A stretch of 64,000 nucleotides of DNA. Source: Azolla caroliniana (Eukaryota; Plantae; Polypodiophyta). Shown here one piece after another: positions 30,905-58,507 of the stretch. A program made the position numbers and the translations under genes. The stretch covers positions 20,584,001 to 20,648,000 of the forward strand of contig JBHGNT010000005.1 of NCBI GenBank assembly GCA_043228905.1, in the 5' to 3' direction. A model generated the notes under the pieces. That model was not told the DNA's origin, made no database searches, and worked only from the letters and a program-made list of their open reading frames with translations. Within the stretch, counting starts at the first letter, position 1, and the number at the start of each line of letters is the position of its first letter.

Positions 30905-30968
30905 TTCTAGAATGTTCTAGAATGTCCTAGAGCATTCTAGGTCTAGAACATTCTAGAACATTCTAGAA
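30905..30968. promoter_or_regulatory. Heat-shock-element-like array in U3 (also present in the 3' LTR)
   Basis: TTCTAGAATGTTCTAGAA...TCTAGAACATTCTAGAACATTCTAGAA, alternating nGAAn units just upstream of TATAAAT at 30994. Confidence 0.65.
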
Positions 30969-31164
30969 ATCTCTAAGCTATTCTATAGGAACCTATAAAT
31001 AAGCGCATACATGTATTCTCAAATCAATTCGAATCAACACCAGTCTTTAGCTCTCATTACATATCTTGTATCCATTCCCTTTCTTTCTCTATCTTATACA
31101 TCCATTCTTCTCTATCCTTCTTCCATCACTCTATCTTTTATCCTTGGTTCTGACAGTTTGATTC

Positions 31165-31204
<40 letters not shown>

Positions 31205-31229
31205 CCTCCTTTGTAACCATCCTGAAACC

Positions 31230-36857: not shown

Positions 36858-37519
36858 TGTTACATGCATGACCATATAATATCCCATAATAAGATTGTAC
36901 CATAGTATTCTATACACATGGACAAAGTGTGAGGGTTAAACGAGAGTGAAAAGAAGGGAATGATTACTTTTTATCCTTGGGATTGAGACAACCCATTAGG
37001 CCAAGTGTGAACTTGCTTGGGGGCCTTAGGTTTGGCTATAAATATGAGGCCTATGTTACCGGCATGACCATATAATATCCCGTGGTGAGAATTTACCGTA
37101 GTATTCTATACACGTGGATAAGTGTGAGGGTTAAACGAGAGTGTAAAGAAGGGGAGAATTACTTTTAATCCACGGGATAGAGACAACCCATTAGGCCAAG
37201 TGTGAACTCGCTTGGGGGCCTTGGGTCTCGCTATAAATATGAGGCCTAGCTACCCTCATTTCATCATCTCTTGACTACGTCGAGACACTGTTTCGTGGTG
37301 GGTCAACTCTTGTAGCGAGCGCGCCAACACTAGGTACGACTCGACACCACAACGGTGGTATGGGACGACGATCGAGGCTCGAATCCATCTCAATCCCTTC
37401 TCTCGGAGGTGGTCGGGTGGATCGACACCCTTCTTTCACTCTCCTTTCTTATTTCATATATATTATATCCTTATCATATGATCACATTAGATCATCACTC
37501 TAACAGTTGGTATCCGAGC
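36858..37519 (+). mobile_element. Partial LTR (36858-37053) followed directly by a full LTR of the same family (37054-37505) and a tRNA-iMet PBS
   Basis: Both copies start TGTTAC..GCATGACCATATAATATCCC. The first follows a purine-rich tract. The second ends CTAACA and is followed by TGGTATCCGAGC (37508-37519). Confidence 0.8.
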
Positions 37520-39473
37520 TTATGTTTCTAATGTTTCTTTTGTTGGTTTTTGTTGTCTTCTTGATGGATGATGATCAATCGACGTGCGGTCGACCTTGAT
37601 CTAGATAACGATCAACAAAGGAACTTCGGTAACTCTTTCTTCATTGGGTCTATTAGTGCCATGTTGTAAGTTACTAATGACACATGCCTCGAGAGCACTT
37701 TGAGATTGCCGAAGTTCGGACATTTGATGAGCGGTTGAACTAAGGAAATTTTGTATTTGTAAGAAATACGACTCAATGGAGATTAGCCCAAGAGGATTTC
37801 CTTGAGTTCCTTCCACTTGAGCGGATGACATCGGGTCATTATTATAAGCCATTGAATGATAATTTTTGGCAAAGAAATAGGATAAGGTCAGACAAATAGT
37901 CATAACATCATGTCGTGATGTAAACATATCATGGGCCAACATTAATCGATATCATGATCTCACGTCAATACCCCTCTAGACGTATGAGATGAGGTTTAAG
38001 ATCAGGTTACTATGGTAACACAAAGGTGTTTTAAAAACCATGGGGGTGACAAATGAATGTCTTTCCCTCATCTCTATATTGATTTTTTCTTGACGGCTCC
38101 CTGAGGCTCAACCATGTATGTTTGCGTCATGAATAGTTTATACACGAAAACAATGTTAACAATAAACTATGTTTTTGTGCCCACGTATGTGGTTTCGGCT
38201 CTTTAAGTCCTATTACGAGGACCCCGAAGTGCACTTAGACCTAAAGTCTAAACATGTACTATAGTCATATGTATCAACAATGGTGTATGGTCTTGATCAT
38301 ATTTGAGCTCGAGACCTCGAGAACAAATGCATTAAACACTTCGGCTAACCAAATAGGTTGCTCGTGTTGAATGTTTAATATTTTATGCGTATAAGCGAGG
38401 CATATGCCCATATATGTTTTCTTTAAAAGAAACATATATGTCAAGAGTCCTTATTTCCCTCTCATTTACCACAAACTATGTTGGTACGTTACCTAACCTC
38501 AAGTCTCATAATTGCGATGGCATACGCCAAAGTGCAACCTAATGGTCAAGCCAAATGAGCCCTCTTTTCGTAGTAGGCCCACATGGCCCATCACATGGTT
38601 ACGTTGTCGTAGTGTAGGTTGCACACTATGTGGAAATTATATTTTTGTCCCTCCGGATAGAGAATGGAGTGCTCGGTGAGAACCGGAAGAAAACGGCATA
38701 CCGGCAAGGAGGAAAACGGCATACCGGCAAGGAAGAAAACGGCATACCGGCAAGGAAGAGCCGGATAAAGAGACATAAATGTAAAAAAAAAAATAATAAA
38801 AAGGAAATACTCACTACTGCGCAGGGCATGATTTGAACTCTGCACCTCCACGTTGACAAACCCCAACCTTACCATTACATTAACTTATCTTAAGTGTTTT
38901 AAATATAGATTTAATAGGTATAAGACCTTTATTTATGCATACCTTTAAAAGGTAAATCGTGTATTTTTTTATATATGAAAAAAAGAAAAGAAAAGAAAAA
39001 CACGAGACACTAAAAAATAACTCATGCACATCTAGCGTGCATGAGCCCTATATTTAGGAAATAAAAAAAAGCATCACATGCACATTTAGTGGACATGAAC
39101 ACTTTTTGTAAAAAAAAAAGCATGAAGCCATGCTTAGCTCTTCCTTCCTTATATAAGGAGGAGAGAAATATGTATATGGTTGTTGATTTTTTTTGGATTA
39201 AGAATTAATCAATACAAAAATTATTCGTGGGATTCACGATTTATACATCTACTTCTCTCTTAACACCCTAAGTACCAATTAATATAGTATACTCGTGTGA
39301 TTCACGAGTTTCTTATCTTTCTCTTTGCTATTTACTCATAATTAATCTCTATCTCACGAACTTCTTTCTCCTAGTCCAAGACCTCTGTGGTTCCCACCCG
39401 ACTCACGCAACGATCCGGAGCCGAAAGGCACGACACAGTTGGTGAACCCGACGTGAAGACGGGTGGCAAGGAG

Positions 39474-41513
39474 ATGGAGGCTCAACAAGCTAACAATATG
39501 ATGGCGATGTTCGAACGGATGCTTCAAGAACAACGCACGATGTCGGAGATTTCGGCATCAGTAGAGCGGCTCATGCAACGCAACGGGCAATTTAATGGTA
39601 AGGATGTGTCGCGATATTTGCAGGACTACAAGGCGGAGATGCTCCGGTGCCGGGCTTCGGAAGGACTGCAAGTGACATCCTTTAACCGGGTGGCGACCGA
39701 CGGGCTTCAAGGGAGTATCCACGGGTTGCAACAACAAAATCCGACGTGGGAAGCATTCGAAGAGGCGTTAAAGACCACGTTTGCCATCGAGGACTCCTCC
39801 AAGGCAACGTGGAGGGGATTCGAGGATTGGGTGGAAACGTCAGGTAAGGGGCTGAAGGTCCTCGAAGTGTTTTCGACATTCGAAAGTCAGTTCGGGAGGT
39901 TGTCCGCGAGAGATCAAACTATTCTTGCACCGGACAAAGTCATCATGTTTTTGCGAGCTGTGGACGTCCGGGACCGGAAAGATCTCGGAGTGCTTCTTGA
40001 GGACACGACCACCGAAAGCGGCCTCACCGAAACATGGGAAAGCGTGCGGGATATCGTCGCGCGGTACACGAAGAGGGGGCAATGGCTTGCCAACGAAGAA
40101 AAGAGGGTTTCGGAACCGATTCCGAAACCGAGAACGGGACTGGAAGACCATCAACCGAGGGCTCGGGAGATTACGGCCGAGAAGGGAGTCGACGCGTCTA
40201 CGGTGGAGCAGCTGCTGAAGGAGATGGAGAATCTAAAGATCGCGATGGTGAAGAAGTCGGATGACCGCCCCACAAGCTCCAAATATACGGATCGACGGTG
40301 CATATGGTGCGATAGCGCCGAACACGATCGGAGGGATTGCGACGACCATAAGGAGGCGCTACGACGGGATCTCATCTACTACGAGGGAAACCGGATTCAT
40401 TCGATGGACTCTCGGAAGCCACTCCGACCGAACTTCCGGAAAGGCGGCATGAAGAAGGTGCTCGAGGAGGAGTTAGCGGCAAGAAGCAACTATGCGACAA
40501 CCGCGGGAATATGTGTCGGGGAGTCATCGGGAGCGAAGGCGTCTTTCTGGCCGGAGGTGCTAGGAAACACCGAGAAAACCGACTCCAACGATATCCGAAA
40601 CACCGCGGAAGGCGTCCGGGAAGCTACGGGATGGGAGTGCCCTGTCGACAAAAATAGCATATACGCCCTGTGTCAATTACATGAGGTGTATGTGGACGAG
40701 AAACGACGGCGCACGGAGGATGCGGCCGGACCATCGAAGATACCGGAAAGCTGGAACTCCGGAGGTAAGGGAAAAGAAAAGGCGACTCCGGCATTCAAGC
40801 TCGCCTCGAACATAGAACAACAAACCGACTTGAAAAGAGTGTTCGAGGAAAGAATCTTGGATAGCCGGGTAGATTTTTCGCTGCGGGAACTACTCGGAAT
40901 AGCGAAGAAGGAGTTTCACGATCTTCTCGTGGATCTCGTGAAAAGGAAGAGACAAAGTACGGAGGAAAATGCTCCAAGGGTGAATGCAAATACCGTTTCA
41001 ATGAACGACACCGAAGTGGAAGGCGAAATTCCGAACTCCCACTATACAAGGCCACACTGGGCACGTGCGACTACGGAGACTCCGGTCCGAATCGGCAGCA
41101 TCAAAGAACCCGTGCTAGCATTGATTGATCACGGATCGGAGATCAACTTGATGTCCAAGGAGTTCTACCGAAAGGGGAAGTGGCCTATAAACACCAACCA
41201 TGGATGGAAGATTCGGGCAGCCACGAAAACGACAAAAGACCTATTTGCAGCTTGTCCGGATGTGACGGTAAAGATCGGGGATGTCGAAATTGACCAAAAT
41301 TTCTTTGTGCAGGATGAGGTTTCACATTCTGTCATCCTCGGCCAACCCTTTATCACGGCTTCACGGATGGAGACGAAGGTGCTCGATAGTGGTGCGGCTT
41401 TTGCGCGAATTCGGAGCCAAAACGGAGGGAAATCCGTCCAATTCCTAACGGTGCCGGCAAATCACGAAAGGAACAAGAGGGAACTCTTGTCCCAAGTGAG
41501 AATGGATTTTTAA
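39474..41513 (+). CDS. Gag-protease polyprotein
   Basis: Uninterrupted ORF; first ATG after the PBS at 39474. CCHC CIWCDSAEHDRRDC; protease ALIDHGSEINLM...VILGQPF. Confidence 0.9.
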   Translation: MEAQQANNMMAMFERMLQEQRTMSEISASVERLMQRNGQFNGKDVSRYLQDYKAEMLRCRASEGLQVTSFNRVATDGLQGSIHGLQQQNPTWEAFEEALKTTFAIEDSSKATWRGFEDWVETSGKGLKVLEVFSTFESQFGRLSARDQTILAPDKVIMFLRAVDVRDRKDLGVLLEDTTTESGLTETWESVRDIVARYTKRGQWLANEEKRVSEPIPKPRTGLEDHQPRAREITAEKGVDASTVEQLLKEMENLKIAMVKKSDDRPTSSKYTDRRCIWCDSAEHDRRDCDDHKEALRRDLIYYEGNRIHSMDSRKPLRPNFRKGGMKKVLEEELAARSNYATTAGICVGESSGAKASFWPEVLGNTEKTDSNDIRNTAEGVREATGWECPVDKNSIYALCQLHEVYVDEKRRRTEDAAGPSKIPESWNSGGKGKEKATPAFKLASNIEQQTDLKRVFEERILDSRVDFSLRELLGIAKKEFHDLLVDLVKRKRQSTEENAPRVNANTVSMNDTEVEGEIPNSHYTRPHWARATTETPVRIGSIKEPVLALIDHGSEINLMSKEFYRKGKWPINTNHGWKIRAATKTTKDLFAACPDVTVKIGDVEIDQNFFVQDEVSHSVILGQPFITASRMETKVLDSGAAFARIRSQNGGKSVQFLTVPANHERNKRELLSQVRMDF

Positions 41514-44500
41514 AGCGGACTGTTGCGGAGTGGGGAAGTGATAGTCCGAGAAGCCCTGATACCCCACACAGGAAGAAAACTCTCGGAGCAAAACAAGTAC
41601 GAATCGGCCTGGATGGGGCATCTACGTACACGGCCGTAACCGGAGGAATGAAGAAACAATACCGACAAGTGGAGGATAAGTTACGGTCGGCATCAATAAT
41701 AAAAGAAGACGAAGAAATCGTGGGAGTGATCGAGGAAGTGTTCTATGGGAATACACTACAACGGCTTGAAGAGCTTGCGGAAGATAAAAGCCAAGGGAAC
41801 CGGGTAGTCCCGGTGGAATCGGTCGAGATGTACGAGATCGTTGCGAAAATGGGGCCGGATGCGCTCCGCAAAGAAGAAGCAATGGTAAGTACGAAATACA
41901 AGACCGTGGAGAAGAAGGTGAAACCGGCCGCGGGACCACTACCCGCCGATAGCGAACAAAAGAAGAAAGAAGTCTCGGGAGATCCGACACTTCGGAAGTC
42001 CGTGGATATCGGACATGCCTTCACAGATGAGACCCGGAAGAAACTTCGGATCGGTGGAGGTGGGTTCCTCTTACAAGAAGAAGAAAAACGGTTTCGAGAG
42101 ATGTTGGAGCAACATGGCAAAGCATTCGCGTTCACATCGAGGGAGATCGGATGCATTGATCCAAAGATAGTGGAGCCGATGGTGATTTTCACGATTGATC
42201 ATGTACCGTGGAACCTGAAGCCGATTCCGGTGCCACGGGCGCATATTCCGAAAGTCATCGACTTGCTCAAGGAGAAGGTGGCGATGGGGATTCTAGAGCC
42301 ATCAAGTGCTCCGTACTCAAATCGATGGTTTACGGTTCCGAAGAAGAATGGGTCACTCCGATTCATCCAAGACTTGCAACCGGTGAACAAGGTCACGATC
42401 CGGAACTCGGGAGTCGGTCCGATAGTGGACGAATTCGCGGAAGCTTTTGCCGGACGTGCGATATACTCCATCGGGGACCTATACTCGGGGTATGACCAAT
42501 TCCAACTAGCCGTGGAGAGCCGAGACATCACTACCATGCGGACACCGATAGGACTAGTTCGAATGTGCACACTACCACAAGGAGCGACAAACTCGGTTGC
42601 ACATATGATGAACGCGATGAACAAGGTGCTTCGAGATTGCATCCCGGAGATAACGATGCCGTTTCTAGATGACATTCCGATGAAAGGATGCGCGGTGGAA
42701 GAAAAAGATGAGACTATGGATGATCGGGGATGCCGAAAGTTCGTGGTCGACCATATTCATGATTGCGAGAAAGTGTTGCGAAAGCTAGAAGATGTGCACC
42801 TAACACTTTCCGGGGAGAAATCGGCATTCGGGCAAGAAGAAATATTGGTGGTCGGACATCTATGTGGACCCTACGGCCGAAGACCGTCACCAACAAAGGT
42901 CGATGCGATTCAAGCTATGAAGGAAGTATGTGAGTCAACATCGGAAGTCCGAAGGTTTCTGGGTGCGTGTGCATTCTATCACATATGGATTCCACACTAT
43001 GCACATATAGCGGACCCGCTCTATCACTTGTTGCGGAAAGGTAAGAAATTCGAGTGGAAACCGGAACACACTAAAGCCATGAGGAAGCTCAAGAAGACAC
43101 TATGGAGGGCGGAATCACTTAAGAAGCCAAGCTACGAGCGGCCAATCATAGTAACGGTTGATACAAGTCCAACCGGTATCGGGTGGGTCATCAATCAAGC
43201 CGACTCGGATGGTTCGCGGTATCCGATCCGATTTGGAGCAAAGGTCCTCAACGAAAGGCAACGCGGATATGCACAAGTCAAAAGAGAATTGTGGGGAGTC
43301 GTGTCGGCGATAAAATCGGATCGGGATTATTTGATCGGAGCTGAAGTGGTGATCGAGACGGATTGTCTTCCGATACTCGGGATGATGCGGTGTTGTACGA
43401 TACCGGATGTGGCTATGCTAAGGTGGATTGCATATGTCAAGTCACTTAATCCGGAGGTTCGACACATCTCGGGGAAGGACAACGCGGTAGCGGACATGTT
43501 ATCGAGGGCGCGGTTTGAAGACGACATAACCGAATCAGATAATGAAGAAGTTTCCGAAGACTACTTCACGTCAGAACACATATGCCGAGTGAACGTGATC
43601 CGAGAATTCCGGGAAGAAGAATACGAGGGGGAAACCTTGATGATCGGAAAGATGCTACAAGAGGTCGAGGATTCAACCAATGATAAAGAAAGGAGAGCCG
43701 AGATCCGAAGGAAGAAGAGGCAAGTCCAAAAGTTCTTCTTGGAAAACGGTTTAATATGGAGGACGCCGAAAAGACCGGATGGGATACCACTTCGAGTAGT
43801 CGGGACGAAAGAGCAACGAAACCGGATAATGTCCAAGTTCCACGAATCCGATTGGGCTGGACATCGAGGAACATGGGCAACTTTTGTGAAAATCAAGCAA
43901 AGATATTGGTGGAAGAACATGTATAAAGATGTCGCGGAGTTCACAGAAAGCTGCGAGAAATGTCAAGTCTACTCCGGGGTCCGACACCGAGATGAGCTGC
44001 ATCCGACATTCTCACCGACAATCAACTTCAAGTGGATGGTCGACATTGTAGCTATGCCGATCGGGATTGGAAAAAAGAAATACTTGGTGTTAGCTCGAGA
44101 AGATCTCACAAACCAAGTTGAAGGTCGAGCGCTTCGGAGGAAAACGTGTGCCGCGGTGTGCCAATTTCTTTTGGAAGAAGTGTTTTGTAGGTACGGCTGC
44201 GTAGGACAAGTGATTGCGGACCGGGGAGAACTCGACTCGGACAAAGCTAGGGGATTCTTCGCCAAACATGGAGTTCGGTTAACGTTGACAACGGCCTACA
44301 ATCCGGAGGCCAACGGGAAGATCGAACGAGGACATAGTCCGATCGTGAAAGCACTTGCGAAGGCATGCGACGGAAGGGTGAAGGATTGGCCACAAATGCT
44401 TCCGTATGCACTATGGGCGGATCGGACGACGCATAGCTCCGTGACCTGTTACATGCCGGCAGAACTCATGACCGGACAAGCACCGGTAATGCCAACGGAA

Positions 44501-45115
44501 ACCGCAATCGCGACATGGACAATACTACCGTGGAAGGAAGAGATGAGTCGGGAAGAACTACTAGCGGTCCGGATACGACAACTGGAGGGAAGACCGAAAG
44601 ATGTAGCGGAAGCGTCACGCCGACAACAAGAAGCACGGTTCCGGAACAAAAGCCGGTTCGACACAAAGCACCGACTACGACCGAGGAGGATTGAAGAAGG
44701 AGATTGGGTGATCGTCTATGATAGTAGCTTGGACCATCAACATACAACGATGCGGAAATTCGCGAAAAGGTGGTTCGGGCCGTACGAGGTTCGGAAGGTC
44801 TTCGACAACGGGACGTACCGACTGTCCGAGTTGGATGGAACAATACTACGAGTGCCTATAGCCGGGAAGCGGGTGAAGATTTTCAAGAAGCGGACCGACG
44901 ACAAACCTTATGTGATCCAAGTCGAGGCCGACAACGAGGAGCAATCGGACGAAGACCACAATGATGCGGGAAGCGAAGAAAGTGGATTACAACTCATAGT
45001 CGACATAAGGGGAGAATCGGAGGAAGCTTCGGATGAAGACGGATACGAAGAATCAAGAACTTCGGCACATACCGGAGGATGTGCGGGTTTGGAGGGGGCG
45101 AGTGTCGTAGTGTAG
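41510..45115 (+). CDS. Pol (RT-RNase H-integrase), probably expressed by -1 frameshift
   Basis: Frame is open from 41510 to 45115. RT DLYSGY/FLDD, RH VDTS...DNAVADMLSR, IN H-H-CxxC, ADRGE, NGKIER, GPY. Confidence 0.92.
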   Translation, partial: LKRTVAEWGSDSPRSPDTPHRKKTLGAKQVRIGLDGASTYTAVTGGMKKQYRQVEDKLRSASIIKEDEEIVGVIEEVFYGNTLQRLEELAEDKSQGNRVVPVESVEMYEIVAKMGPDALRKEEAMVSTKYKTVEKKVKPAAGPLPADSEQKKKEVSGDPTLRKSVDIGHAFTDETRKKLRIGGGGFLLQEEEKRFREMLEQHGKAFAFTSREIGCIDPKIVEPMVIFTIDHVPWNLKPIPVPRAHIPKVIDLLKEKVAMGILEPSSAPYSNRWFTVPKKNGSLRFIQDLQPVNKVTIRNSGVGPIVDEFAEAFAGRAIYSIGDLYSGYDQFQLAVESRDITTMRTPIGLVRMCTLPQGATNSVAHMMNAMNKVLRDCIPEITMPFLDDIPMKGCAVEEKDETMDDRGCRKFVVDHIHDCEKVLRKLEDVHLTLSGEKSAFGQEEILVVGHLCGPYGRRPSPTKVDAIQAMKEVCESTSEVRRFLGACAFYHIWIPHYAHIADPLYHLLRKGKKFEWKPEHTKAMRKLKKTLWRAESLKKPSYERPIIVTVDTSPTGIGWVINQADSDGSRYPIRFGAKVLNERQRGYAQVKRELWGVVSAIKSDRDYLIGAEVVIETDCLPILGMMRCCTIPDVAMLRWIAYVKSLNPEVRHISGKDNAVADMLSRARFEDDITESDNEEVSEDYFTSEHICRVNVIREFREEEYEGETLMIGKMLQEVEDSTNDKERRAEIRRKKRQVQKFFLENGLIWRTPKRPDGIPLRVVGTKEQRNRIMSKFHESDWAGHRGTWATFVKIKQRYWWKNMYKDVAEFTESCEKCQVYSGVRHRDELHPTFSPTINFKWMVDIVAMPIGIGKKKYLVLAREDLTNQVEGRALRRKTCAAVCQFLLEEVFCRYGCVGQVIADRGELDSDKARGFFAKHGVRLTLTTAYNPEANGKIERGHSPIVKALAKACDGRVKDWPQMLPYALWADRTTHSSVTCYMPAELMTGQAPVMPTETAIATWTILPWKEEMSREELLAVRIRQLEGRPKDVAEASRRQQEARFRNKSRFDTKHRLRPRRIEEGDWVIVYDSSLDHQHTTMRKFAKRWFGPYEVRKVFDNGTYRLSELDGTILRVPIAGKRVKIFKKRTDDKPYVIQVEADNEEQSDEDHNDAGSEESGLQLIVDIRGESEEASDEDGYEESRTSAHTGGCAGLEGASVVV

Positions 45116-46272
45116 GTTGCACACTATGTGGAAATTATATTTTTGTCCCTCCGGATAGAGAATGGAGTGCTCGGTGAGAACCGGAAGAAAATGGCATACC
45201 GGCAAGGAGGAAAACGGCATACCGGCAAGGAAGAAAACGGCATACCGGCAAGGAAGAGCCGGATAAAGAGACATAAATGTAAAAAAAATAATAATAAAAA
45301 GGAAATACTCACTACTGCGCAGGGCATGATTCGAACTCTACACCTCCACGTTGACAAACCCCAACCTTACCATTACATTAACTTATCTTAAGTGTTTTAA
45401 ATATAGATTTAATAGGTATAAGACCTTTATTTATGCATACCTTTAAAAGGTAAATCGTGTATTTTTTTATATATGAAAAAAAGAAAAGAAAAGAAAAACA
45501 CGAGACACTAAAAAATAACTCATGCACATCTAGCGTGCATGAGCCCTATATTTAGGAAATAAAAAAAAGCATCACATGCACATTTAGTGGACATGAACAC
45601 TTTTTGTAAAAAAAAAAGCATGAAGCCATGCTTAGCTCTTCCTTCCTTATATAAGGAGGAGAGAAATATGTATATGGTTGTTGATTTTTTTTGGATTAAG
45701 AATTAATCAATACAAAAATTATTCGTGGGATTCACGATTTATACATCTACTTCTCTCTTAACACCCTAAGTACCAATTAATATAGTATACTCGTGTGATT
45801 CACGAGTTTCTTATCTTTCTCTTTGCTATTTACTCATAATTAATCTCTATCTCACGAACTTCTTTCTCCTAGTCCAAGACCTCTGTGGTTCCCACCCGAC
45901 TCACGCAACGATCCGGAGCCGAAAGGCACGACAACGTCAGTACGAATGCCTTCGTTCGTAAGAATGCTCTCATGGTGGCATCGTATCCATGTAATGAGGG
46001 AGGGGTCGAAGCATGCTACGGTGTACCAACTTTTGGCCAAAAATTTAGTACTAAATCGAAGAAGAAAAGAAACATTAAAAATTGTAAATAAATTTCAAAA
46101 AACCAAAAACAAATTCATTACGTCACACTCGAATGTTCAAAGATATTATACGTCACACTCGAATGTCCCTAGGCCATATTTAATGCATTAAGTGTTGCCC
46201 CAGTCTCCTAGGTAGAGTTGTACGAAAGCACACCTGGAGAAGGTTTCCATTGTGACAGGTGGTCAGTGTCAA

Positions 46273-46327
46273 TCTCTCTCTCTCTGGTATTGGTAGTCGA
46301 ACGTGTCAGTTGGTATGTCTCTCTCTC

Positions 46328-46371
<44 letters not shown>

Positions 46372-46460
46372 GTCTCGAAGTTGTCAGACAGACACCTTCG
46401 AAGGTCTGTTTCTCTCTGTCTCTCACTCACTCTCTGTCTCTCTGTCTGTCTGTCTGTCTG

Positions 46461-46516
<56 letters not shown>

Positions 46517-46710
46517 GTCTCGAAGTTGTCAGACAGACACCGTCGAGGGTCTGTTTCTCTTTGTCTCTCACTCACTCTCTGTCTCTCTCTCTCTCTCTTC
46601 TACCTCGAAGTTGTCAGACAGACACCTTCGAAGGTCTGTTTCTCTCTGTCTCTCACTCCACCTTCGAAGGTCTCTTTCTTTCTTTCTTTCTGTTTCTCTC
46701 TCTCACTCCA
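46273..46710 (+). repeat. (CT)n microsatellites interleaved with three copies of TCGAAGTTGTCAGACAGACACCTTCGAAGGTCTGTTT
   Basis: Directly visible. Lies upstream of a likely 5'-UTR intron (CAG|GTA ~46962 to TAG| 47630) of the accessory gene. Confidence 0.85.
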
Positions 46711-47634
46711 CCTTCGATTCTCTGTTTCCCCGTTGTTGTTCTTGTGTTCCCCTCTGTGCCAGGTTCGATCTCTGAACTCTGTATACGCAGCAGCCTCTGA
46801 AGTTTGTCTCCTCTGCAGCAGCCTCTGAAGTTTGCTCGTTTGTCTCCTCTGCAGCAGCCTCTGACGTTTTGCTCGTTTGTCATCCTGAAGTTTTCTCGTT
46901 TGTCTCCCAAGGTATCGAAATCAAGACGGTGTGGTACCTCTGCAAGTTTAGCGACCTCCAGGTATTCTCTGTGTTGCATGCCCAACTGGTATGTATTCTT
47001 TTTCTGAATGTTTCCTCTCTGTCTGTTTTTTATTTGTATGTGTATGACCATTTGTAGGTTTTGATTATTCATAGTCTATGTGTTGCATGCCCAACTGGTA
47101 TGTTTTTGTTTTCTCTGTGTTTCTCTGTGTTTCTTTTAAAAATGTATCACAATATTTTGTTCGATGTGGTTGTGTGTTAGACATGTTTGTACATGTGGCC
47201 AAAATGGAGTTGGCTATGATGAGTTGCTATGTTTTTGTTTTGTTAATGTTTCATGTCCATCTGTTTTTATTTTGTGTGAGTTTGGCATGGATGAGTTTTT
47301 TTCCTACTATTTTGGGTTTTTGTATGTTGGACATGGCTTGTACATGCGATGTGATGGAGTTGGTTATGATGATTTACAAAGTTTTCGTTTTCTTTGACTT
47401 TCCTATTCGTCTGTTTTTATTTTCTGTGTGTTTGACATGGATGAGTTTTATTTTCTGTGTGTTTGACTATTTAGGGTTATTGTGTGTTGATTTGCAATGT
47501 GATGATTTGCTATGTGGTTTGTACATGTGGTTTGTACATGCAATGTGATGATTTGCTATGTGTTGATGGTAATTGCGATGTGTTGATGGTAATTGATTTG
47601 CTATGTGTTGATGAGAATTGTGTTGACTAGGAAA

Positions 47635-50600
47635 ATGACGAGAAGGACACCCATAAAGAAGACATTGATGAAAGAGAAAGTGAAGACACCAGTGAAGGAA
47701 GGAAGAAGGACACCCATGAAAGAAAGCAAGAAGACACCCACAAGAGAAAGGGTGATGAATTCATCAACACAGAGAAAGAAGACCTGGCAGTACCAGTCCA
47801 TCAGTCGAGACACACCTCTTGGATGGAATTATTTCCTTCGGGCACGACCTGACGTTTACCCAGAGTTGAGAGAGTGGTTGTTAAAAACCTGGGGGTCAGC
47901 ACATCCCGACACAAGGCGAGGATTCCACATGAGTGGTTTGAAGAGGGAATACATCAATTTATTGAAGACGAGATACGAACATGTTTATGATACAAATCAA
48001 ATCACTAACAATGAGGTGGGTACTGTTTTTGCACGTGCTTTTGCATGTGAAGTTCAAGGTGGCATCGACGTTAATTGGGAAGATTTTAATCGGCACCGGT
48101 CAGAACATTACAAAGGGTCCTCCAGTACCAACACTGGCTTGAAGTCATCTGGAACCTCTCATGTGGATATTCCAGCTACAACACCTGTCCAACAAGTTCT
48201 AGAGGCAAAGGTACGGGCCACAATGACTGAAAAACATGAACAGATGATGGCTGGTTGCATAGCTTCTATGAGCTCAAGAATACAAGCACTACTTGCTGAT
48301 TTGGAAGCAGTTAAATCAGCTGAGATACAGGCAGAAAAGAAATTTTCTTCAATAAAGACTACATATGAATGGATTGCATCGACAATCCAAAATTCAGAAA
48401 GTGAGGTGTTGAAAGAGGAGTTGAAGAAAGAGCTGAACAATATGGGTGCTCAATTACATTCACAGATGACAGACCTTGATACTTGTAGGAATGCACATGA
48501 AGAAATAGATAATAAGTTGTCAGCCTTAAAGTTGCATTCTGAGAACCTTGCATGCTTGATGCAGGATTTAAAACATAATGGTTTTGATACTTTGTGTCCA
48601 TCTGTAATTGAGCACCCAAGTGGTATAGAAAGTACCATTACTAGTATAGCTATATCACGGTATTAGCTTTAAAAGTTATTTATTTCTACTTTTATGGTAT
48701 AAATAAGTGAGCAGCTAATATATTATAACTTGTGTTTGCAATCTTCCAGGTGTATATTTTGTGGCCTCGGATTCAAGCTGGAGGCTATGGATGTTGTGAT
48801 TACACCATGCTTGCACACATATCATGTGCTATGTGCTAAGTATCATTTTGAGAAAGAGAATACATGTATGGACTGTAAAACTACAATTGCGGCTGAGTGG
48901 TACTATGCTTGGGGTTTAAAAGTACACCCGTACGGTATGTGGCTCTACTATTCTATTGTTTGTATTATATAATGTCAATTATCATTTGGACTAGAACTAG
49001 TGTATGCCACAATTCATACTTAAAATTTAGGAGAACAATGGATTAGTATTAGTGTATCTCTAACAACAATGGGATAGTATTGGCAGTACTCTTAATATAT
49101 AATTGGTATGTGTAGTTAGTTGAAGGGATATTTTCCAGAATTAGTAGTACTAAAAGGGAACCAGGTACAACATCGTCCAATCTATATTGTAACTTGCCTA
49201 GTATTAGTTTAGTAAACACTATACTTATAGTACACTGTTGACTGTTAGTATTGTTTGTGTAACTTGGAAATTAGTACTAGTAATGTAATTTGGGAACAAG
49301 GTGTCACTTAAATTGCTGAATAATAGTACAGTTTCTGTAATTTGGAAATGAGGTGTGTGAAACACATATCACGTTTAGTACTAATACTGTTCAAGTTCAA
49401 TACTGTTGGTGTAATTAGTACAAGTTATGTAACTAGGTGTGTAGAACACATATCACGTTTAGTATTACTTGTGTGCAAAATACCAATCTACATTTGTTGG
49501 ATTAGTACTTAGTAATTACTACATTGTTCATGATTAGTACTAGTTTTGTACTTTGTGAACTAAGTTTCTAGTACATTGCTCATGATTAGTAATAGTTTTG
49601 TAACTAAGTGAGTAGTACATTGCTCATGATTAGTACTAGTTTTGTAATTTGGGAACTGAGTAGTACTTTGTTCCCTATTAGTACTAGATTTGTACCTTAT
49701 TTGTGTAAATTGGTAACTAAGTGAGTAGTATATTGTGCATGATTAGTACTATTTGTGTAATTTGGGAACTAAGTGAGCAGTACATTGTTCGGGATTAGTA
49801 CTAGTTCAGTGATTTAGGAAATAAGTGAGTAGTACATTGTTCAAGATTAGTACTACTTATAAATTTGACAAAGTCAGTGGTGCATTTTTCGGGATTAGTA
49901 CTTGTGCATGATTAGTACTACTTGTGTATATTGTGCATGATTAGTACTATTTGTGTAATTTGCGAACTAAGTGAGCAGTACATTGTTCCTTATAAGTACT
50001 AGTCCACTAATTTAGGAAACAAGTGAGTAGTACATTGTTCATGATTAGTACAGTGGTACATTGTTCGGGATTAGTACTCCTTGTGTAACATGGTAACTAA
50101 GTGAGTAGTATATTCTGCATGATTAGTACTACTTGTGTATATTGTGCATGATTAGTACTACTTGTGTAAATTGGGAACTAAGTGAGCAGTACATTGTTCC
50201 TTATTAGTACTAGTTCAGTAAATTAGGAACTATGTGAGGAGTACATTGTGACCTACATTGTATATTTTAGATGATGGTACTAACGTTCAACGTTTTTTTG
50301 TTTCTTGCAATGAATGTCGTAGTGTCAAGCAACTCCACGCCAGGGAAGGTCATGGAACTACCAGCCCCTGTGCCTAAACCCTCAATATCTGCCGCACATT
50401 CCAAGGTTCAGGGACCATCATTACCAATAACCTATGATTTTTATGATGAGGATGAATGTATGAGAAGGGCCATTGGAGCAGTGGAACATATGCTTCTACA
50501 AACAAATTCCCCAAGCTCCGGTCAACAATTTGAAATAGAGCCCACTAAGAAGAGAAATGATGTGTCTTTAGAAATAGAGCCCAGTAAGAAGAGAAATGCT

Positions 50601-52136
50601 GCAAGAATGTTGTATGGAAACGGCAAGAAAAGGAAAGTTGAATGCAATGGTGAGTCATATAAGTTCTCACCTGTCAGGAGCGTTGTCAACCTAATCCATT
50701 GTCTAATACCATGTACTTGTGTTGCTAGCTGATGACGAAATGATATTTGGTGACGGAGATACGAGTTCAAAACCTGATCGTGAAGACGAATTTATCACAC
50801 TCCCAGGTAAACGTCAAAAGCCAGACTTTGAAAACAATGATTTAGCTCATAACAACCCTATTATATTGTTGCTTTTGGTGCATTCTATAGATCATAGCAA
50901 CACTGTTGAGCACCTAGATGTTGTGGAGAAGATGACCGAGCCCACCACTTGCAATGGGGTATCTACGGCTGTACAGTATGACCATGTAACATTAGGTAAA
51001 AATGTGGCCCAAAACCCTATGTTCATTGTTTGCAAACTTTTGAGTATGTGAGTTGATACTAATATTGTTTGGAATCCCATTAATTAGGTTTACAAGAGCA
51101 GCCTGAATCGGGAACTTCATGGAGCACAAGTGCAGAGTCAGATTCTGGGATTAACCTTTCCACGGAGGCAGATTCTGGAAGCACATCTTCCACACATGAG
51201 GATTGTGAGAAAAACGAAGCATTCATATGTGAAGAGCAGCTGGCATGTCCAAACAACAGTATGTCTAAAGAAGCCCATGAGGAGTGTGGAAAGAATATGG
51301 CAAGTACTGAAGAGAAGATTGAAGCCCATGAAGAGTCTGGAAAGAATATGGCAAGTACTGAAGAGAAGATTGAAGCCTATGAAGACTCTGGAAAGAATAT
51401 GGCAAGTACTGAAGAGAAGATTGAAGCTCATGAAGAGTGTGGAAAGAATATGGCAAGTACTGAAGAGAAGACTGAAGCCCATGAAGAGTGTGGAAAGAAT
51501 ATGGCAAGTACTGAAGAGCAGACTGATTGTACTGATAATGTGTTAGTAGTGTCTACTGATAATGTGCTAGTACTGTCTAAAGATTCTGATGAGGAGTATG
51601 GAAAGAACATTGCTAGTAATGAAGAGGAGCTTGATTGTACTGAGAATGCCCAAATGGATCGTGGAAAGAACATCGCTTTCCCTGAAGATAAGCCTGATTG
51701 TACAGAATCACATGAGGAGCCTGATTGTACAGATAAGCCTGATTGTACACGTAGTCTTAAGAATGAGTTGACAGCCACCGTACAAGAGGAGTTGACCATG
51801 ACTACTACCATAGTCCACATACAGGAGTCTAATAAGAACGAGTGTACAGGCATCATTGATGATGATAGGGGAATAAAGATGAGTGATAATTTGACTATCG
51901 ACAGCACCTTTGTGGATTTGTGTACAAGCATTGCAGTTGCAGAAAACACAGTTGCTCTCTCAAGCTTGCCACCAGTACAAGGTGCCCGCGCATCCACGCC
52001 TATCTCTGATGCCTCTGATGATGAAGTGCCACTTAGTCAGCTCATACCTAAAGGCTTTAAGATAAAGAAGAATGTAAAATCTGGCACCAACAACAAGCGC
52101 ATTACAAGATCGGCCAAGTTACCCTCTAGTGCCTGA
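47635..52136 (+). CDS. Transposon accessory protein: coiled coil + RING-H2 finger + acidic repeats, 6 exons, ~922 aa
   Basis: GT-AG exons 47635-48659, 48750-48934, 50323-50649, 50729-50806, 50891-50995, 51088-52136 join in frame (2769 nt, no stops). RING CIFC...CLHTYHVLC...CMDC. Confidence 0.75.
49490..50250. repeat. Degenerate ~55-60 bp TAGTAC-rich tandem array in intron 2 of the accessory gene
   Basis: Recurring ATTAGTACTA...GGGAACTAAGTGAGTAGTACATTGTTCATG. Confidence 0.8.
51270..51524 (+). repeat. Five 51-bp coding repeats (EAHEECGKNMASTEEKI)
   Basis: Visible in both DNA and translation. Confidence 0.9.
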
Positions 52137-53056
52137 TTTTCTTCCGATTGTACTTGAACTTTAGCTGTTAGTGATGTCTGAAATACCTCTATTTGGATAC
52201 CAAAATACTGTTTCAATTGCCAATGTCAAAATTCCACTTCTGTATTTTGTAGAAACAATGGGAATATACTTTTTGATCTAAGTATTCCTCTTTTTACAAC
52301 GTTTTGTTTCTTTTTTGAGATCATCTCCTGATGAGTTGCCAAGTCTTTGAGTCTGTTGTAGATAAAATGCTTGAAATTCTTCTTAGCTTGCTAGGAAAAT
52401 TTAGGTTTTCAGGTGTTAATGATGATAAACAGAAAATATCGGGTGTTATTGAAGTATAGACTGTTTCATCAATCCCATTTGGAGGGTAACCAGAATTTGT
52501 GCAAATTGTTGAAGCAATGTGGGCCATATTTTGATGATATCATCCCAATGGATGAACTATCCACTAACAGTAGTAAGGAAACACTCCCCTTTTTGAGCTA
52601 TCACAAATTATTGTTTCAGGAGTTGGATTATTTTGTTAAGGAATTTGAGGCTTCATTGCACATTTGCTTCTTGAAGAATGAACTTACAGTATAAAATCTT
52701 ACAATATTAAAGTCATAATTTGAATTCAACTTACAGATTTATGTGCCTACAGAGGACACACCAACGGCAATGAATCTAGACTTTATCAAGAAGATATACA
52801 ATATTTTTACTCATTTTACCATGGCTCTGCAAAACTTCTATGCTCAAATAACATCAGGAAACATGAGCAATATCGGCAATGAAGAAATCCAAGTCTTGTT
52901 GACAACAACTAATATATTATGAAAGATAAGTACAAGTGGTTGACAGGCATAAACACTTTAGAAGAAAGATGAAATATATCAATTCATTTGTCAATCATCA
53001 AAATTAATAGTGAACTCCAAGTATTGAGAGGGTACAATGTATTGAGAGGGTGACTT

Positions 53057-56000
53057 TCAAGCATTAAATAGAGAGACCTCCCCTAATATGTGCTCATGAA
53101 CCTCTTGGGGGACCTTGTAGACAGTGTTGTATCCCTTAACCTTGTGCTTTGCTTGAGTCATATTGAATTTGATCGCAAGAATGGCATCAACGTAGATTAT
53201 TGCGATGGGTGCTTCTTTTAGTAATGCATATGTGTTCTTGCACTGCGGCAACTTTGCATAATAGTTTCCATACACGACAGACTCACCAACGTTGAAATTG
53301 TTGCCCCAGCCATCCCTCACCACTTCTTTCAATAATGTCTTTCCTTGCTTGCACACCACAATGTAGTAGTCTTCTAAATCTTCATTCTGAGGAGATTTGA
53401 GCACTGCAAAATGATCTCCAACTTCCAATAAAACTGCCAAGTCTTGATTTTGGTTGTAGTATACAATATCGTTTGAATGCACATCATCTTCAATATCATC
53501 TTGTCGTTCAGGCTCAAGCTTCTGCAACTTCCAGGGCTCCACGATTGATAGGTTGATGCATTTATCCCAAGCTTCATCTATACACATGGAACAAAAGCAT
53601 GATAAACTACGTAGTAACAATTGTGTTGTGTCCTTGCGGCTAAACCCTAACACACAATGGGTGCTGCGTGTGCCTTTCACGGTTTTACAACCATATGATT
53701 TAGTTCTATCGACCTCATCAGCGCGAACTTCAACAAACAATCTGTTCTTACCATCATTTGACATCTTCCATGTTAGCCACTGCACAACATCATGTGCATT
53801 TTGTAGCTTAGCACCATTATTATCCAACTGCTCACTTGTAAGGGCACGTTTGATCACAGCCCCCGCGCCATCATGCTCTCCTTTTCCATGTCCAGACCCG
53901 AAGTAATTCCATTGCATACGAATGTTGAATAAGGAGAAATACCTGCTTTTGTAACTCAGGTTTCCAACAAAATTAGTACTATGTTGTCAATAGAGAGTAC
54001 TACACTTCCATTAATACTGGCATCCATTTAATACTAACTTAGTATGGATATAACTTAGTACTAACTTAGTCTGGTTTATACTATGAGTACAAGATGAGTA
54101 CTTTACATCCCCTTGTATAGTACAATGTGTCTATGGAGAACCCTTCACATGGATTAAAACATAATTAGTACAATTCTCTTAAGGACGGACAATACTATAA
54201 GTACAAGATGAGTACTTTACATCCTTTTGTAAACACAACATAGTACAGAAGCAACACACAACATAGTACAATGTGTCTATGGAGAACCCTTCACATTGAT
54301 TAGTCGATACTTAGTACAATTCTTAGTACTAACTTAGTCTGGTTTATACTATGAGTACAAGATGAGTACTTAACATCCTCTTGTATAGTACAATGTGTCT
54401 ATGGAGAACCCTTCACATGGATTAAAACATAATTAGTACAATTCTCTTAAGGACGGACAATACTATAAGTACAAGATGAGTACTTTACATCCTTTTGTAA
54501 ACACAACATAGTACAGAACCAACACACAACATACTACAATGTGTCTATGGAGAACCCTTCACATTGATTAATCGATACTTAGTATGGATATAACTTAGTA
54601 CTAACTTAGTATGGTTTATACTATGAGTAGAAGATGAGTACTTTACATCCTCTTGTATAGTACAATGTGTCTATGGAGAACCCTTCACATGGATTAAAAC
54701 ATACTTAGTACAATGCTCTTAAGGACGGACAATACTATGAGTACAAGATGAGTACTTTACATCCTCCTGTAAACACAACATAGTACAGATACAACACACA
54801 ACATAGTACAATGTGTCTATGGAGAACCCTTCACATGGATTAAAACATACTTAGTACAATGCTCTTAAGGACGGACAATACTATGAGTACAAGATGAGTA
54901 CTTTACATCCTCCTGTAAACACAACATAGTACAGATACAACACACAACATAGTACAATGTGTCTATGGAGAACCCTTCACATGGATTAAAACATACTTAG
55001 TACAATGCTCTTAAGGACGGACAATACTATGAGTACAAGATGAGTACTTTACATCCTCCTGTAAACACAACATAGTACAGATACAACACACAACATAGTA
55101 CAATGTGTCTATGGAGAACCCTTCACATGGATTAAAACATAGTACAAACAAAATTAGTATGCATGCATCCATTCACAAGTGCAAGATTCGAATAGTTACA
55201 AACATAATTAGTATGCATCCATGTGAATAGTACTGTTTGTTAATAATTACAAACATAATTAGTATGCATGCACTAACACAAGAATTACTTCCTTACACAT
55301 TGCATGGTAAGTACTAAACATATGGATTAAAAATTACCTGGCGATAAAGTAGAACGATCGTGCCGCCTTAAACTGCGAGGCAGCACCATCAGACCAAACC
55401 CAATGACGGTTAAAGGTTACCCCTAGAGAAAATAAATCTGCATGGTGAAGCTTAAAACAATGTTGAACAAATAGTGTATCATGCTTTTTATCATCTGAAA
55501 TGTAAAATATTGATTTCTTATGTAACTCACCGTCTTGCCTCCAATAGCAAATATGCACAAGTATTGTACATTGATCATTGTACCAATGCATTGATTGAAC
55601 CTCATTCTGAACTTTAAATGTATAGTTTTCTGCAAAGTCAATAACAGATACGATGACACCCGTTGGTAAGTTATTAATACATTCCTTGAATTGTGAATTT
55701 TGCCAATAACTCCGGAAGTTATGTGGAATGAACTCCCCAAGTTGTTTCTTAAATTCTGAGACAAGGGTAGCAGCACATGTCTCCTTATATACTTCCTTGA
55801 TACGCTTAGTTACAACTCCCTTGCCAATATTTTCAGTCACATACTCTAAATATTTCCATTTCACGATATGACTGTTTCCCAAATCAAGCTCCTGCATACA
55901 AAATAATGGTAGCGGACAAACCTTACATGTTCTTAATAGACATGTACGACGATGCCACTCACATGATGGTTCTTTTTCACAAACACAAGACCTCCATAGC

Positions 56001-56985
56001 TCAGAAACAGATGCATAAGTCATGTTTCGTGCATTACACCTATTATCCTCCCCATTTGGTCTACATATCTCACAAGTGCAGACACATAATTCCCCGTGTA
56101 TACCCTTACAATCAGTACGCATTGCATTCACGGCTAGCCTTAACATGTCCATCTTCACATGGTACACACAACAACATGTATTCCTCTCATTTAATTTTCT
56201 AACATAAAATGGTTTCAAACCTTGGAACTTGCGGAATCCAACAGTCAAGCTTGGATGTTGATCTTTAAAGTTCATGTACAATTCAGCCTACATCAACCAA
56301 TATATATAGCAAACATTAATATACAGTTGGTCAAAACACAAAGTTATGGAATGTGAAATGATATAAAAAAATGGAATACCTCTGTCATCTCCAAGAAGTG
56401 TCTAGGGTGAATCTGGTACTTACCCTGACTTATTCGTTGTCTACACACGTCCTTCTTATTTGGTGAGACACGCGTATTTTTGGCCCAAAATGAATCCACT
56501 TTCTCAATAATCTCTTGAGATAAGGCATCACATCGTCGTCTACGTCCCAACCCCATCCACTTGAATTTGTTTGAGTGTATATTTTGGCGATGTTTCCTCA
56601 AGTTCCTTCTTTGAATACCCAGGGCTAAGGCAACTTTAGTATCACTATATTTTTTTCCTCTCGCACCGTTCACAACCATGTGTAGGGCTGCCCTCTTTGC
56701 AGCAAGTTTGTCTAAGCTCTCTACACCTTTCACTAAGTCTAGGGATGACTTCATAGACTCTACAATCTCTTCTGAAACACATTGGTCCCTAAATTTTATT
56801 CTCTCCATGTCTTCATTCAAACTTTGATGGTGTAACACTCTACAGATAATATCCCTACGATCCTCTTCACTAAATCTCTTTGTTATTTCTACCAAATAAC
56901 GGACTATGTGAAGAACCACTCGTCTCTTAGTCCTTTCAGATATGCATGAGTTACTTGACAACTCACTCTCGTTAGGAACCCCCAT
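53057..56985 (-). CDS. Sola2-like DDD transposase, 3 exons, ~813 aa (start uncertain)
   Basis: Exons 56985-56380, 56287-55338 and 53942-53057 with GT-AG introns, in frame. Motifs TCCCVYH, DFAENY..EVQSMHW, ISDDKKHD, SDGAASQFK, WNYFGSGHGKGEHDGAGAVIKR, SCFCSMC. Confidence 0.85.
54035..55145. repeat. Tandem array (8 anchors, 146 and 122-126 bp periods) in transposase intron 2
   Basis: GTGTCTATGGAGAACCC recurs at 54127, 54273, 54395, 54541, 54667, 54813, 54959 and 55105. Confidence 0.92.
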
Positions 56986-57064
56986 TCGGTCACTAGATTT
57001 ATCCGCAAAAATTAAGTGGCTTGCAAAAGTAGTTAATGTTATATAGACTCAACCAAGAAAACAC

Positions 57065-57660
57065 AATCAAATGTTTTTAAATGTGGCCTGCAAAGTGAAA
57101 GATATTTCGTTTCAAACATTAGAATTACATATCAAATATGACAATTGTCAGTTCTAAAATTTTTGTACTGAAATATGAAGAAATGTAACATTTTAGTACT
57201 GAAAATAAAAAAAACGGTTTGGTGAAAGGAACCTCCAATGGTGGACGGAGCGTTGGATATGCCGCCTCGATTTGGTGGAAGGAACCTCCAATGCCGCCTC
57301 GATTTGGTGGAAAAAGCCACAAATCACCACGACACCAAATCAAATGTTTTTAAATGTGGCCTGCAAAGTGAAAGATATTTCGTTTCAAACATTAGAATTA
57401 CATATCAAATATGACAATTGTCAGTTCTAAAATTTTTGTACTGAAATATGAAGAAATGTAACATTTTAGTACTGAAAATAAAAAAAACGGATGGAAGGAA
57501 CCTCGAATGGATGGAGGGGGCGTTGGATATGCCGCCTCGATTTGGTGGAAGGAACCTCCAATGGTGGACGGAGCGTTGGATATGCCACCTCGATTTGGCG
57601 GAAGGAACCTCCAATGCCGCCTCGATTTGGTGGAAAAAGCCACAAATCACCACGACACCA
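57065..57660. repeat. ~270-320 bp tandem duplication upstream of the transposase, with internal GCCGCCTCGATTTGGTGGA units
   Basis: AATCAAATGTTTTTAAATGTGGCCTGC occurs at ~57065 and ~57338. Confidence 0.85.
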
Positions 57661-58507
57661 ACTTCAATGGATGGATGTAAGAAAGTCGTTGTCGAAGAAG
57701 TCACTATTGGCTGCTACCAACAGTCTCTGTACCTCGACCTAAACCCTAACAAAAACAGAAACCCTAAAAAAATCAGAAATCCTCAACTTAAACGCTCAAA
57801 ACAGACATGGATGTCTGAGATTTAGATTGGAGGAAATCAGAAACTGAACATGGATCTGTGATGAAAAGCTCAGAGGGATAGAGGAAGAGGAGTATGAGGG
57901 GAACCGCCAAAACGACGTGAGGGGAAGCGCCAAAATCGACGTGAGGGGAAAATAGCCCCCAAAATGGAATGAACATCTCCTCACCTGTTCCCCCCACTCC
58001 TTCTACAATAAATGACACTTGTACTACAGTCACCCCACTCTCCAAAATCGATTTTCTTTTTCTCTGATTTTTTTTTTTTGAATTATTCATACTAACAGTA
58101 CTAAAAGTACTGACAATTTTTGTGGCCAAAAACAGTACTTTTCTGGTACACCGTAGCGTGCTTCTACCCGGAGGGATGTTGGATATGTGTCATAGGCGCA
58201 ACCTCACATGGAGTGGGTCAAGCCCAATGTTCTAAACATCATTGTGGCTATGATCGTTTCGTTACGTAACAAAATCGACGTGACCAACGGGGATGTCAAC
58301 AAAACAAATTGTTGAAAAAAGGATGGTGACTACGTCATTCTCACAAAAATGTGAGGACGGCCACCAAGATCCTTTCCCCGAATAACTAATATCCACATGT
58401 ATATTTATCACATATATATGATCAAATAAATATACACATGACCACATATGGATATATTAAAAAAATCGTAATATCAAATAACCAACAATGATGTAATCGA
58501 GATACGT

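Follow-up and report, generated by a model that had tools for sequence, protein, structure and literature searches.

A Sola2 transposon of the water fern Azolla caroliniana carries a conserved RING-H2 accessory gene facing its transposase and arrays of a family-specific palindrome

The stretch of Azolla caroliniana DNA analysed here (the window: 64,000 nucleotides of GenBank assembly GCA_043228905.1, contig JBHGNT010000005.1, positions 20,584,001 to 20,648,000 of the forward strand) contains a complete Sola2 DNA transposon of 12,167 bp (window positions 46003-58169). Within its terminal inverted repeats (TIRs) lies an accessory gene that faces a transposase of the DDD type and travels with it. 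An earlier, sequence-only reading had proposed that this gene encodes a transposon-borne protein of about 922 amino acids (aa) with a coiled coil and a RING-H2 domain. The proposal of a transposon-encoded accessory protein is borne out: the gene is enclosed by TIRs with a 4-bp target-site duplication (TSD), is present in many copies, retains its RING ligands, and is under purifying selection over aa 1-400. Comparison of related loci indicates that it is an old partner of the transposon, not a captured host gene, and alignments reveal a core, comprising a conserved N-terminal domain (N-domain), a coiled coil and a RING-H2 domain, that is common to distant plant Sola2 lineages. Each of two Sola2 families in the genome has amassed a palindrome of its own, in a pair of intronic arrays unrelated to each other as well as close to the two element ends.

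The boundaries of the element are defined by two 26-bp TIRs, located at 46003-46028 (plus strand, with a GGG start) and 58144-58169 (minus strand), which share 24 of 26 letters and are flanked by the TSD GGAG (45999-46002 and 58170-58173, both read on the plus strand). Contigs from three runs (X2, X3 and X4) contain the empty insertion site with a single GGAG. In the 523-Mb genome the exact TIR pattern has 182 matches, as opposed to none for a reversed control, and a 4-bp TSD accompanies the window element and 20/20 other copies with both TIRs (19 perfect, one with one mismatch; copy L172, without an exact left TIR, was left out of this count). The TIRs of Sola2 elements start with 5′-GRG, while CACTA elements have CACTA termini and a 3-bp TSD. 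DDD transposases together with 4-bp TSDs are typical of Sola elements, and Mutator-like elements (MULEs) have TSDs of 7-12 bp (PMC10741241). The host element is a Sola2 transposon, neither VANDAL nor CACTA, because its TIRs, its TSD and its transposase sequence blocks are all those of Sola2. A CACTA identity is ruled out by the GGG termini, the 4-bp TSD and the Sola2 blocks, and a MULE or VANDAL identity by the TIRs, the presence of a 4-bp instead of a long TSD, and the same blocks.

The transposase gene lies on the minus strand, convergent with the accessory gene, and its frame is intact, with three exons encoding 813 aa. Exon 1 (56380-56985) is counted from the first in-frame ATG, and a further upstream exon is possible. 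Exon 2 (55338-56287) encodes a Cys-rich region and the motifs DFAEN (D419) and SDGA (D502), and exon 3 (53057-53942) carries WNYFGSGHGKGEHDG with the third Asp, D543, in the motif GHGKGEHDG. We take D419, D502 and D543 to be the catalytic DDD triad. These blocks agree by eye with the Sola2 alignment in Additional file 10 of PMC3627910; a Pfam search of the transposase exons returned no family. Both transposase introns are joined in contigs of run X3, the transcript data throughout being contigs of runs X1-X5 whose RNA origin is presumed; runs X7 and X8 gave no aligned contig. The named relatives of the transposase are from Klebsormidium, Ceratodon and Calypogeia, with those of molluscs more distant. 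Single contigs also contain alternative in-frame introns within exon 2 on the minus strand, at 55423-55530 (X3) and 55438-55530 (X1), which would yield forms of 777 aa and 782 aa, the former without the SDDKKHD block.

As the sequence-only reading had claimed, six exons of the accessory gene, separated by GT-AG introns with phases 2, 1, 1, 1 and 1, join into one frame of 2769 nt that encodes 922 aa plus a stop, with no internal stop codon. With alternative acceptors for introns 2-5 the frame likewise stays open, at 887-903 aa, and the length of 922 aa is therefore conditional on the acceptors chosen; the chosen splice sites are kept in 10/10 other copies, save for one mutated intron-2 donor. 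All six exons are on the plus strand. Exon 1 (47635-48659) encodes a basic tail with T-P-x-K/R sites (aa 1-50), the N-domain (aa 51-162) and the coiled coil (aa 184-315), and exon 2 (48750-48934) the C3H2C3 RING (48751-48876; aa 343-384). The basic clusters noted earlier are found in exon 3 (50323-50649), with PTKKR at residue 477, PSKKR at 490 and KKRK at 505. Exon 4 (50729-50806) is a prediction, and exon 5 (50891-50995) provides the donor of the sole junction of the gene seen in a transcript contig. Exon 6 (51088-52136) encodes the acidic 17-aa repeats (a 51-nt unit in five copies, 51270-51526), the SDDEVPLSQLIPKG motif from 52014, a basic tail and the stop. The motif SDDEVPL, described at first as terminal, occupies aa 883-889 and is thus near-terminal, 33 aa short of the end; the basic tail beyond can be aligned with that of the Adiantum homologs P0079 and P0080. 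Pfam has no family for exon 3, and exons 1 and 6 give only weak coiled-coil or spectrin scores below the cut-offs.

The four T-P-x-K/R sites named at the outset (TPIK, TPVK, TPMK and TPTR, at aa 5, 18, 26 and 34) are present, along with a fifth, TPGK, at aa 409. Four such sites within 50 aa are rarely obtained by shuffling (P=4e-5), yet the sites are not independent of one another, because a 24-nt tandem repeat at 47682-47750 spans two to three of them. Four S/T-P-x-K/R sites also occur in the close homologs P0093, P0061 and P0068. Motifs of the T-P-x-K type can also bind AT-rich DNA, and a role in phosphorylation by cyclin-dependent kinases is therefore only one way to read them.

The N-domain (47785-48120, plus strand) is a conserved, mainly helical domain of about 110 aa that we consider a candidate motif reader. 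Its predicted structure, derived from 31 sequences, has a pLDDT (predicted local distance difference test score) of 91.6 and a pTM (predicted template modelling score) of 0.86. The proposed coiled-coil-like segment likewise corresponds, in an AlphaFold model, to a two-helix coiled coil with helices at aa 184-253 and 257-315; a homodimer prediction for aa 51-320 scored 0.01, with the alignment not used. Searches of the N-domain against Pfam, Foldseek and VIA-align gave no significant match (Foldseek found nothing at E<=0.001, and the best structure match among 48,161 chains had a Z of 3.1), two N-domain queries of the ESM Atlas gave no usable match, and a fold search with the whole exon-1 model recovered generic coiled coils only. 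This missing structural match does not establish that the fold is new. With respect to VANC, neither exon 1 nor the N-domain alignment has a significant Pfam match, a comparison that covers Pfam only.

The RING itself is present as described, its eight ligands (C343, C346, C362, H364, H367, C370, C381 and C384) all lying within exon 2 with the spacing C343-x2-C-x15-C-x-H-x2-H-x2-C-x10-C-x2-C384. Among the best-scoring copies, all eight are complete in 44/45 loci, or 40/41 distinct copies, and they are also kept in the Adiantum and Pteridium homologs; the lack of ligand conservation among copies that the sequence-only reading had raised against itself is not seen. The residue next after ligand 1 is hydrophobic and that next after ligand 8 is Lys, these being the usual positions that activate a ubiquitin-conjugating enzyme (E2). 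The pattern and spacing are those of the plant ATL RING-H2 ubiquitin ligases (E3s), in one of which a Trp four residues after ligand 6 is reported to be needed for E2 binding (PMC3161093). Members of the present family differ in having no Trp at this position (Trp in 0/12 RINGs) and, with the sole exception of P0085, no Pro after ligand 7, and most have a family-specific Trp 8-9 residues past ligand 8. The Pfam zf-RING_2 match (E=3.7e-5, 24.3 bits) falls under the cut-off of 27.3. The ligand set of an E3 ligase stands, and the missing E2-contact residues make that assignment weaker than first assumed.

A search of the genome with exon 1 identified at least 118 copies (the 118 best matches scored of 543 candidates), so the gene is not the single-copy captured host gene that had been considered as an alternative. 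On contigs C1-C12, an exact and correctly oriented TIR lies upstream of 47 of 56 exon-1 matches, and both TIRs are present for 23 of the 56. The expectation that homologs lie within the same TIRs holds for most of these copies. Seven full-length copies diverge from the window element by 0.07-0.09%, and the others by about 6-8%. Both frames are intact in all eight young copies, window included; of 13 copies in the older subfamily, three retain an intact accessory frame and one an intact transposase frame. We compared the window element with a consensus of nine older copies by the ratio of nonsynonymous to synonymous substitution rates (dN/dS), which is 0.15 for the transposase (L039 and L041, whose region ends were not found, being excluded). 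Within the accessory gene it is 0.34 for aa 1-400 (p=0.016), 0.29 for the coiled coil (p=0.048) and 0.10 for the N-domain (p=0.006), the lowest of any region having both kinds of change; the RING region has one change in 66 codons. By these region-wise ratios, selection bears on the first 400 aa of the protein, and its acidic half changes fast.

A second Sola2 family in the same genome (G000), with at least 58 near-identical transposase matches, exhibits the same arrangement as the window element, including a convergent accessory gene with N-domain and RING-H2. Four of four copies are 11.7-12.2 kb long and have a 4-bp TSD, and their TIRs start with GGGT. One copy (G000:C7:3643411-3655192, L077-L078) is 11.8 kb long and has an intronless transposase core of 619 aa. 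A frame resembling NIF/FCP1 phosphatases lies downstream of the RING exon in this family (Pfam E=2.9e-7), with ELDKV where the phosphatase motif DxDxT would be expected.

More distant relatives were sought in metagenomes, using the best 80 of 293 confirmed loci with near-duplicates merged and leaving shorter flanks out of the counts. Of the 18 distinct loci whose downstream flank extends for 4 kb or more, nine carry a related RING downstream of the transposase, 2.8-7.5 kb away, of which eight are convergent and one is on the same strand; two further loci have the N-domain without the RING, one of them weakly. Of the upstream flanks of at least 4 kb, 0/15 contain a RING. Eight of the nine RING-bearing loci had already been detected with a profile derived solely from the window and its protein homologs, a later RING profile having been built from matches, and a same-strand RING in L142 (2.4-kb flank, weak score) was not counted. 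At locus L168 (4901-6089), the N-domain and RING are on the same strand as the transposase instead of convergent with it. In the transposase tree, RING-bearing elements occupy several deep branches of a clade that includes the Klebsormidium, Calypogeia and Ceratodon transposases, a distribution that fits an ancestral pairing followed by losses or decay, and an accessory-like gene takes the same place and orientation beside transposases only 35-45% identical to that of the window.

Named relatives of the accessory protein come from Adiantum and Pteridium. Both the Pteridium transcript P0110 and P0085 hold the N-domain, a coiled region and the RING (RING-H2 in P0110) in one frame, which independently supports the joining of exons 1 and 2. 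For three distant homologs, with the best candidates scored, the G000 matches listed all fall within the multi-copy families where there are any, and the homologs P0109 and P0095 have no match in G000. A scan of viral contigs found no relatives, and a search for long homologs (813-2320 aa) with alignment A2 found none.

The noncoding parts of the element are marked by a palindrome. The element contains the sequence TAGTACTA 19 times and the remaining 51.8 kb of the window not once; for the hexamer AGTACT the counts are 47 in the element and 3 in the rest of the window. Two tandem arrays account for many of these: array 1 (49500-50250), in accessory intron 2, consists of 26-52-bp units rich in TAGTACTA and AGTACT, and array 2 (54037-55141), in transposase intron 2, of AGTACT-bearing units of 146 and 268 bp that are otherwise unrelated to array 1, the two sharing only short motif-centred matches (best E 0.13). 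Outside the arrays AGTACT occurs 16 times, with 2.9 expected and a maximum of 9 in 300 simulations. One copy, at 46047, is 44 bp in from the left end, and a further three (58097-58139) are within 75 bp of the right end; most motifs sit in introns, 3-8 kb from the ends. The second family has a different palindrome, TAGCTA, which is present 189 times there and once in the window element, and which is likewise found in two arrays (TAGCTAATTAGCTA arrays) as well as at each end. A number of further related loci also show locus-specific repeated words next to the transposase. Taken together, the N-domain and the palindrome arrays point to DNA binding.

The account that we favour, and to which we give somewhat less than an even chance, is that the accessory protein reads the palindrome of its own family and switches the element on for a time, the RING serving as an atypical ligase or scaffold. 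The N-domain, aided by the basic T-P-x-K tail, would recognize the palindrome, and the RING would act at those sites on chromatin or silencing proteins, whether through atypical ubiquitin ligation or by providing a zinc-finger scaffold. Silencing would thereby be loosened, and the element could be transcribed and become able to move. VANC, an accessory protein of VANDAL elements, binds short motifs that form tandem-repeat arrays within introns and terminal regions, and itself has tandem peptide repeats (PMC5735166). By analogy with the action of VANC on VANDAL, the effect might be transient and specific to the family. Antisense-spliced read-through from the transposase gene would be expected to damp the activation.

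Several observations weigh against this account. The motif is also found near the ends, so that the transposase could be its reader, and transposases alone are reported to be able to activate cognate copies (bioRxiv 10.64898/2026.08.24.746577). The N-domain resembles no known DNA-binding fold in the structure searches, none of four distant homologs has an S/T-P-x-K/R site within its first 110 aa, the E2-contact Trp is missing throughout the family, and most of the long RING-bearing metagenome loci have no motif array. Across the whole accessory gene dN/dS is 0.90, and in the acidic region (aa 576-880) it is 2.0 (p=0.08, from an alignment that runs through repeats). Decay of the 13 older copies provides a further point: C-to-T changes affect 4.0% of CG, 5.0% of CHG and 0.6% of CHH sites, evenly along the element, and the older copies have therefore been methylated most of the time. 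No clear dip in this decay is visible at the arrays (CG 2/95 and CHG 11/248 in array 1; CG 7/197 and CHG 30/400 in array 2), and the arrays thus gave no lasting protection from methylation.

The transcript contigs are also unfavourable. Of the five predicted junctions, that of intron 5 is joined, in one contig (X3, depth 4.9), and the other four are not seen joined; further contigs read straight through introns 1, 2, 4 and 5, and the exon-1 contigs of greatest depth derive from a frameshifted copy. The commonest joints within the accessory gene are in fact antisense. A minus-strand GT-AG intron at 50545-50670, found in X1, X4 and X5 (two studies), crosses accessory exon 3, as does another at 50389-50670, and a 4369-nt skip (50969-55337, X1) connects the transposase exon-2 donor to the accessory gene. 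In the latter transcript the transposase frame would stop after 536 aa, short of the third Asp. Spliced RNAs of this kind, which continue from the transposase gene into the accessory gene, might give rise to double-stranded RNA or a truncated transposase.

An alternative that we regard as doubtful, though it fares best of the competing explanations, is that the protein is a transposition cofactor that binds the subterminal and internal motifs and loads or pairs the transposase, the RING serving for protein contacts. Two-protein elements with a DNA-binding partner are exemplified by Spm TnpA and the Harbinger Myb protein. The AGTACT copies just inside both ends, the similar placement of the second family's motif, the persistence of the gene pair across deep branches, and a RING without E2-contact residues would all be accommodated by such a role. 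It sits less easily with the intronic location of most motifs, far from the ends, and with the nine of 18 long metagenome loci that are without a RING, although decay or short flanks may explain the latter; nor is such a partner named for Sola2 in the available part of PMC3627910.

It is less probable that the protein is a conventional E3 directed at host silencing, as the sequence-only reading proposed, which would bring about the degradation of a host silencing factor nucleus-wide and would not bind DNA; the arrays would then be transposase sites or neutral satellites. The near-complete retention of the eight ligands in copies and fern homologs, the residues at the usual E2-activating positions, and basic clusters suggestive of a nuclear location are in keeping with this idea. 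However, the ATL-type Trp and Pro are lacking as described above, the strongest constraint by dN/dS is found in the N-domain, and a general effect would leave the family-specific motifs unexplained. We judge it still less likely that the protein is a self-limiting regulator, one that restrains copy number by repressing the element or by promoting turnover of its own transposase. The convergent arrangement of the genes, the truncating antisense splicing of transposase RNA (50969-55337; 50545-50670) and the continued methylation marks on the copies could be read in this way, but both families that carry the gene have expanded recently, to at least 118 exon-1 and at least 58 transposase matches, and the antisense splicing concerns regulation of the transposase RNA, not the role of the protein. 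Passive cargo of the Pack-MULE kind, a captured host RING gene, is very improbable and largely refuted, for although the C-terminal half is without detectable selection and the element also carries a decaying coding-like fragment, aa 1-400 show purifying selection when the subfamilies are compared, the gene keeps its place and orientation beside transposases of low identity, and the best-scored G000 matches of distant homologs lie in multi-copy families or are absent.

If the favoured account of palindrome reading and transient activation were extended, seed-free plants would harbour an old two-gene Sola2 lineage whose partner combines a RING ligase with a sequence-specific DNA-binding domain of novel fold, with a reader and palindrome specific to each family, and with ubiquitin-based anti-silencing that arose independently of VANC and TnpA. 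We entertain this broader proposal as a possibility that is, as a whole, rather unlikely.

Comparison with described systems places the element among Sola2 transposons, with which it has in common the DDD transposase blocks DFAENY, Q-x-HW, SDD-x-x-HD, SDG-A-x-QFK and HGKG-x-x-DG (PMC3627910) as well as short TIRs, a 4-bp TSD and a size within the reported range (PMC3627910, PMC10741241). It differs from them by its conserved convergent second gene, and its family is not limited to the AT-rich TSDs reported for amoebozoan elements (PMC3627910). The available part of a land-plant review gives only Sola1 for plants (PMC9033089). We met no description of a RING-bearing Sola2 in the literature searched, a scope to which the founding Sola paper and Repbase did not belong and on which figures and supplements may bear. 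Second genes as such have precedents: in Dictyostelium and Polysphondylium, large Sola2-Fanzor elements carry a TnpB-like nuclease (PMC3627910), and the Ectocarpus element Sola1-1_Ec32 has, on the opposite strand, a ParB-methyltransferase gene proposed to bind and modify its own element (PMC12477816), whereas the cargo here combines the N-domain, coiled coil and RING-H2.

Two further comparisons lie outside the superfamily. Like VANDAL elements, the window element has an accessory gene whose core is conserved and whose tandem peptide repeats vary (PMC5735166, PMC10398659) and a family-specific short motif in tandem repeats, in introns and in terminal regions (PMC5735166). Its host is, however, a Sola2 element and not a MULE; a RING is present, the N-domain has no Pfam family, the motif is palindromic, and the mutation spectrum is without lasting protection. 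As for maize Spm, no homology to TnpA was seen, and the protein here is encoded by a separate convergent gene. TnpA is an alternative splice product of a CACTA element with a 3-bp TSD. What the two would share is an accessory protein whose action involves subterminal repeats and the activation of the element encoding it (bioRxiv 10.64898/2026.08.24.746577).

VANC and Spm TnpA are the main sources of what is known about sequence-specific evasion of silencing by transposons, and the present element offers a new candidate in another superfamily and plant lineage, with a candidate reader domain, one motif per family and intact young copies. The two families with different motifs in one genome constitute a built-in control for specificity. 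If the N-domain reads DNA, it would do so as a compact domain for which no structural match was found, and if the RING is active, it would link self-activation of a transposon to ubiquitin. Irrespective of mechanism, the analysis defines a conserved gene that fern annotations label 'hypothetical protein'.

Two further features lie within the element. Between the two genes is a decayed coding-like fragment (52253-52900, plus strand), possibly captured, for which a Pfam search found no match and which retains an open frame of 188 aa in the older copy L035 (L035:5910-6476). Transcript contigs align to it at about 90% and then continue into other sequence that is host-gene-like. Upstream of the transposase ATG, at 57070-57650, is a local duplication of about 270 bp with short direct repeats.

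Elsewhere in the window, a Gypsy-type long terminal repeat (LTR) retrotransposon (38605-45933) with near-identical LTRs and long gag-pol frames ends 69 bp to the left of the Sola2 element. A chromodomain-bearing Gypsy element, with LTR stretches 99% identical and in-frame stops, extends over about 30750-36400 and beyond. Inverted repeat copies at 23988-24378 and 36858-37505, 88-94% alike and about 12.5 kb apart, are probably LTRs in opposite orientation. Finally, exon-like frames at 17707-21145 probably belong to a host gene with long coiled coils; they may resemble a kinesin-12-like tail and have no significant Pfam match.

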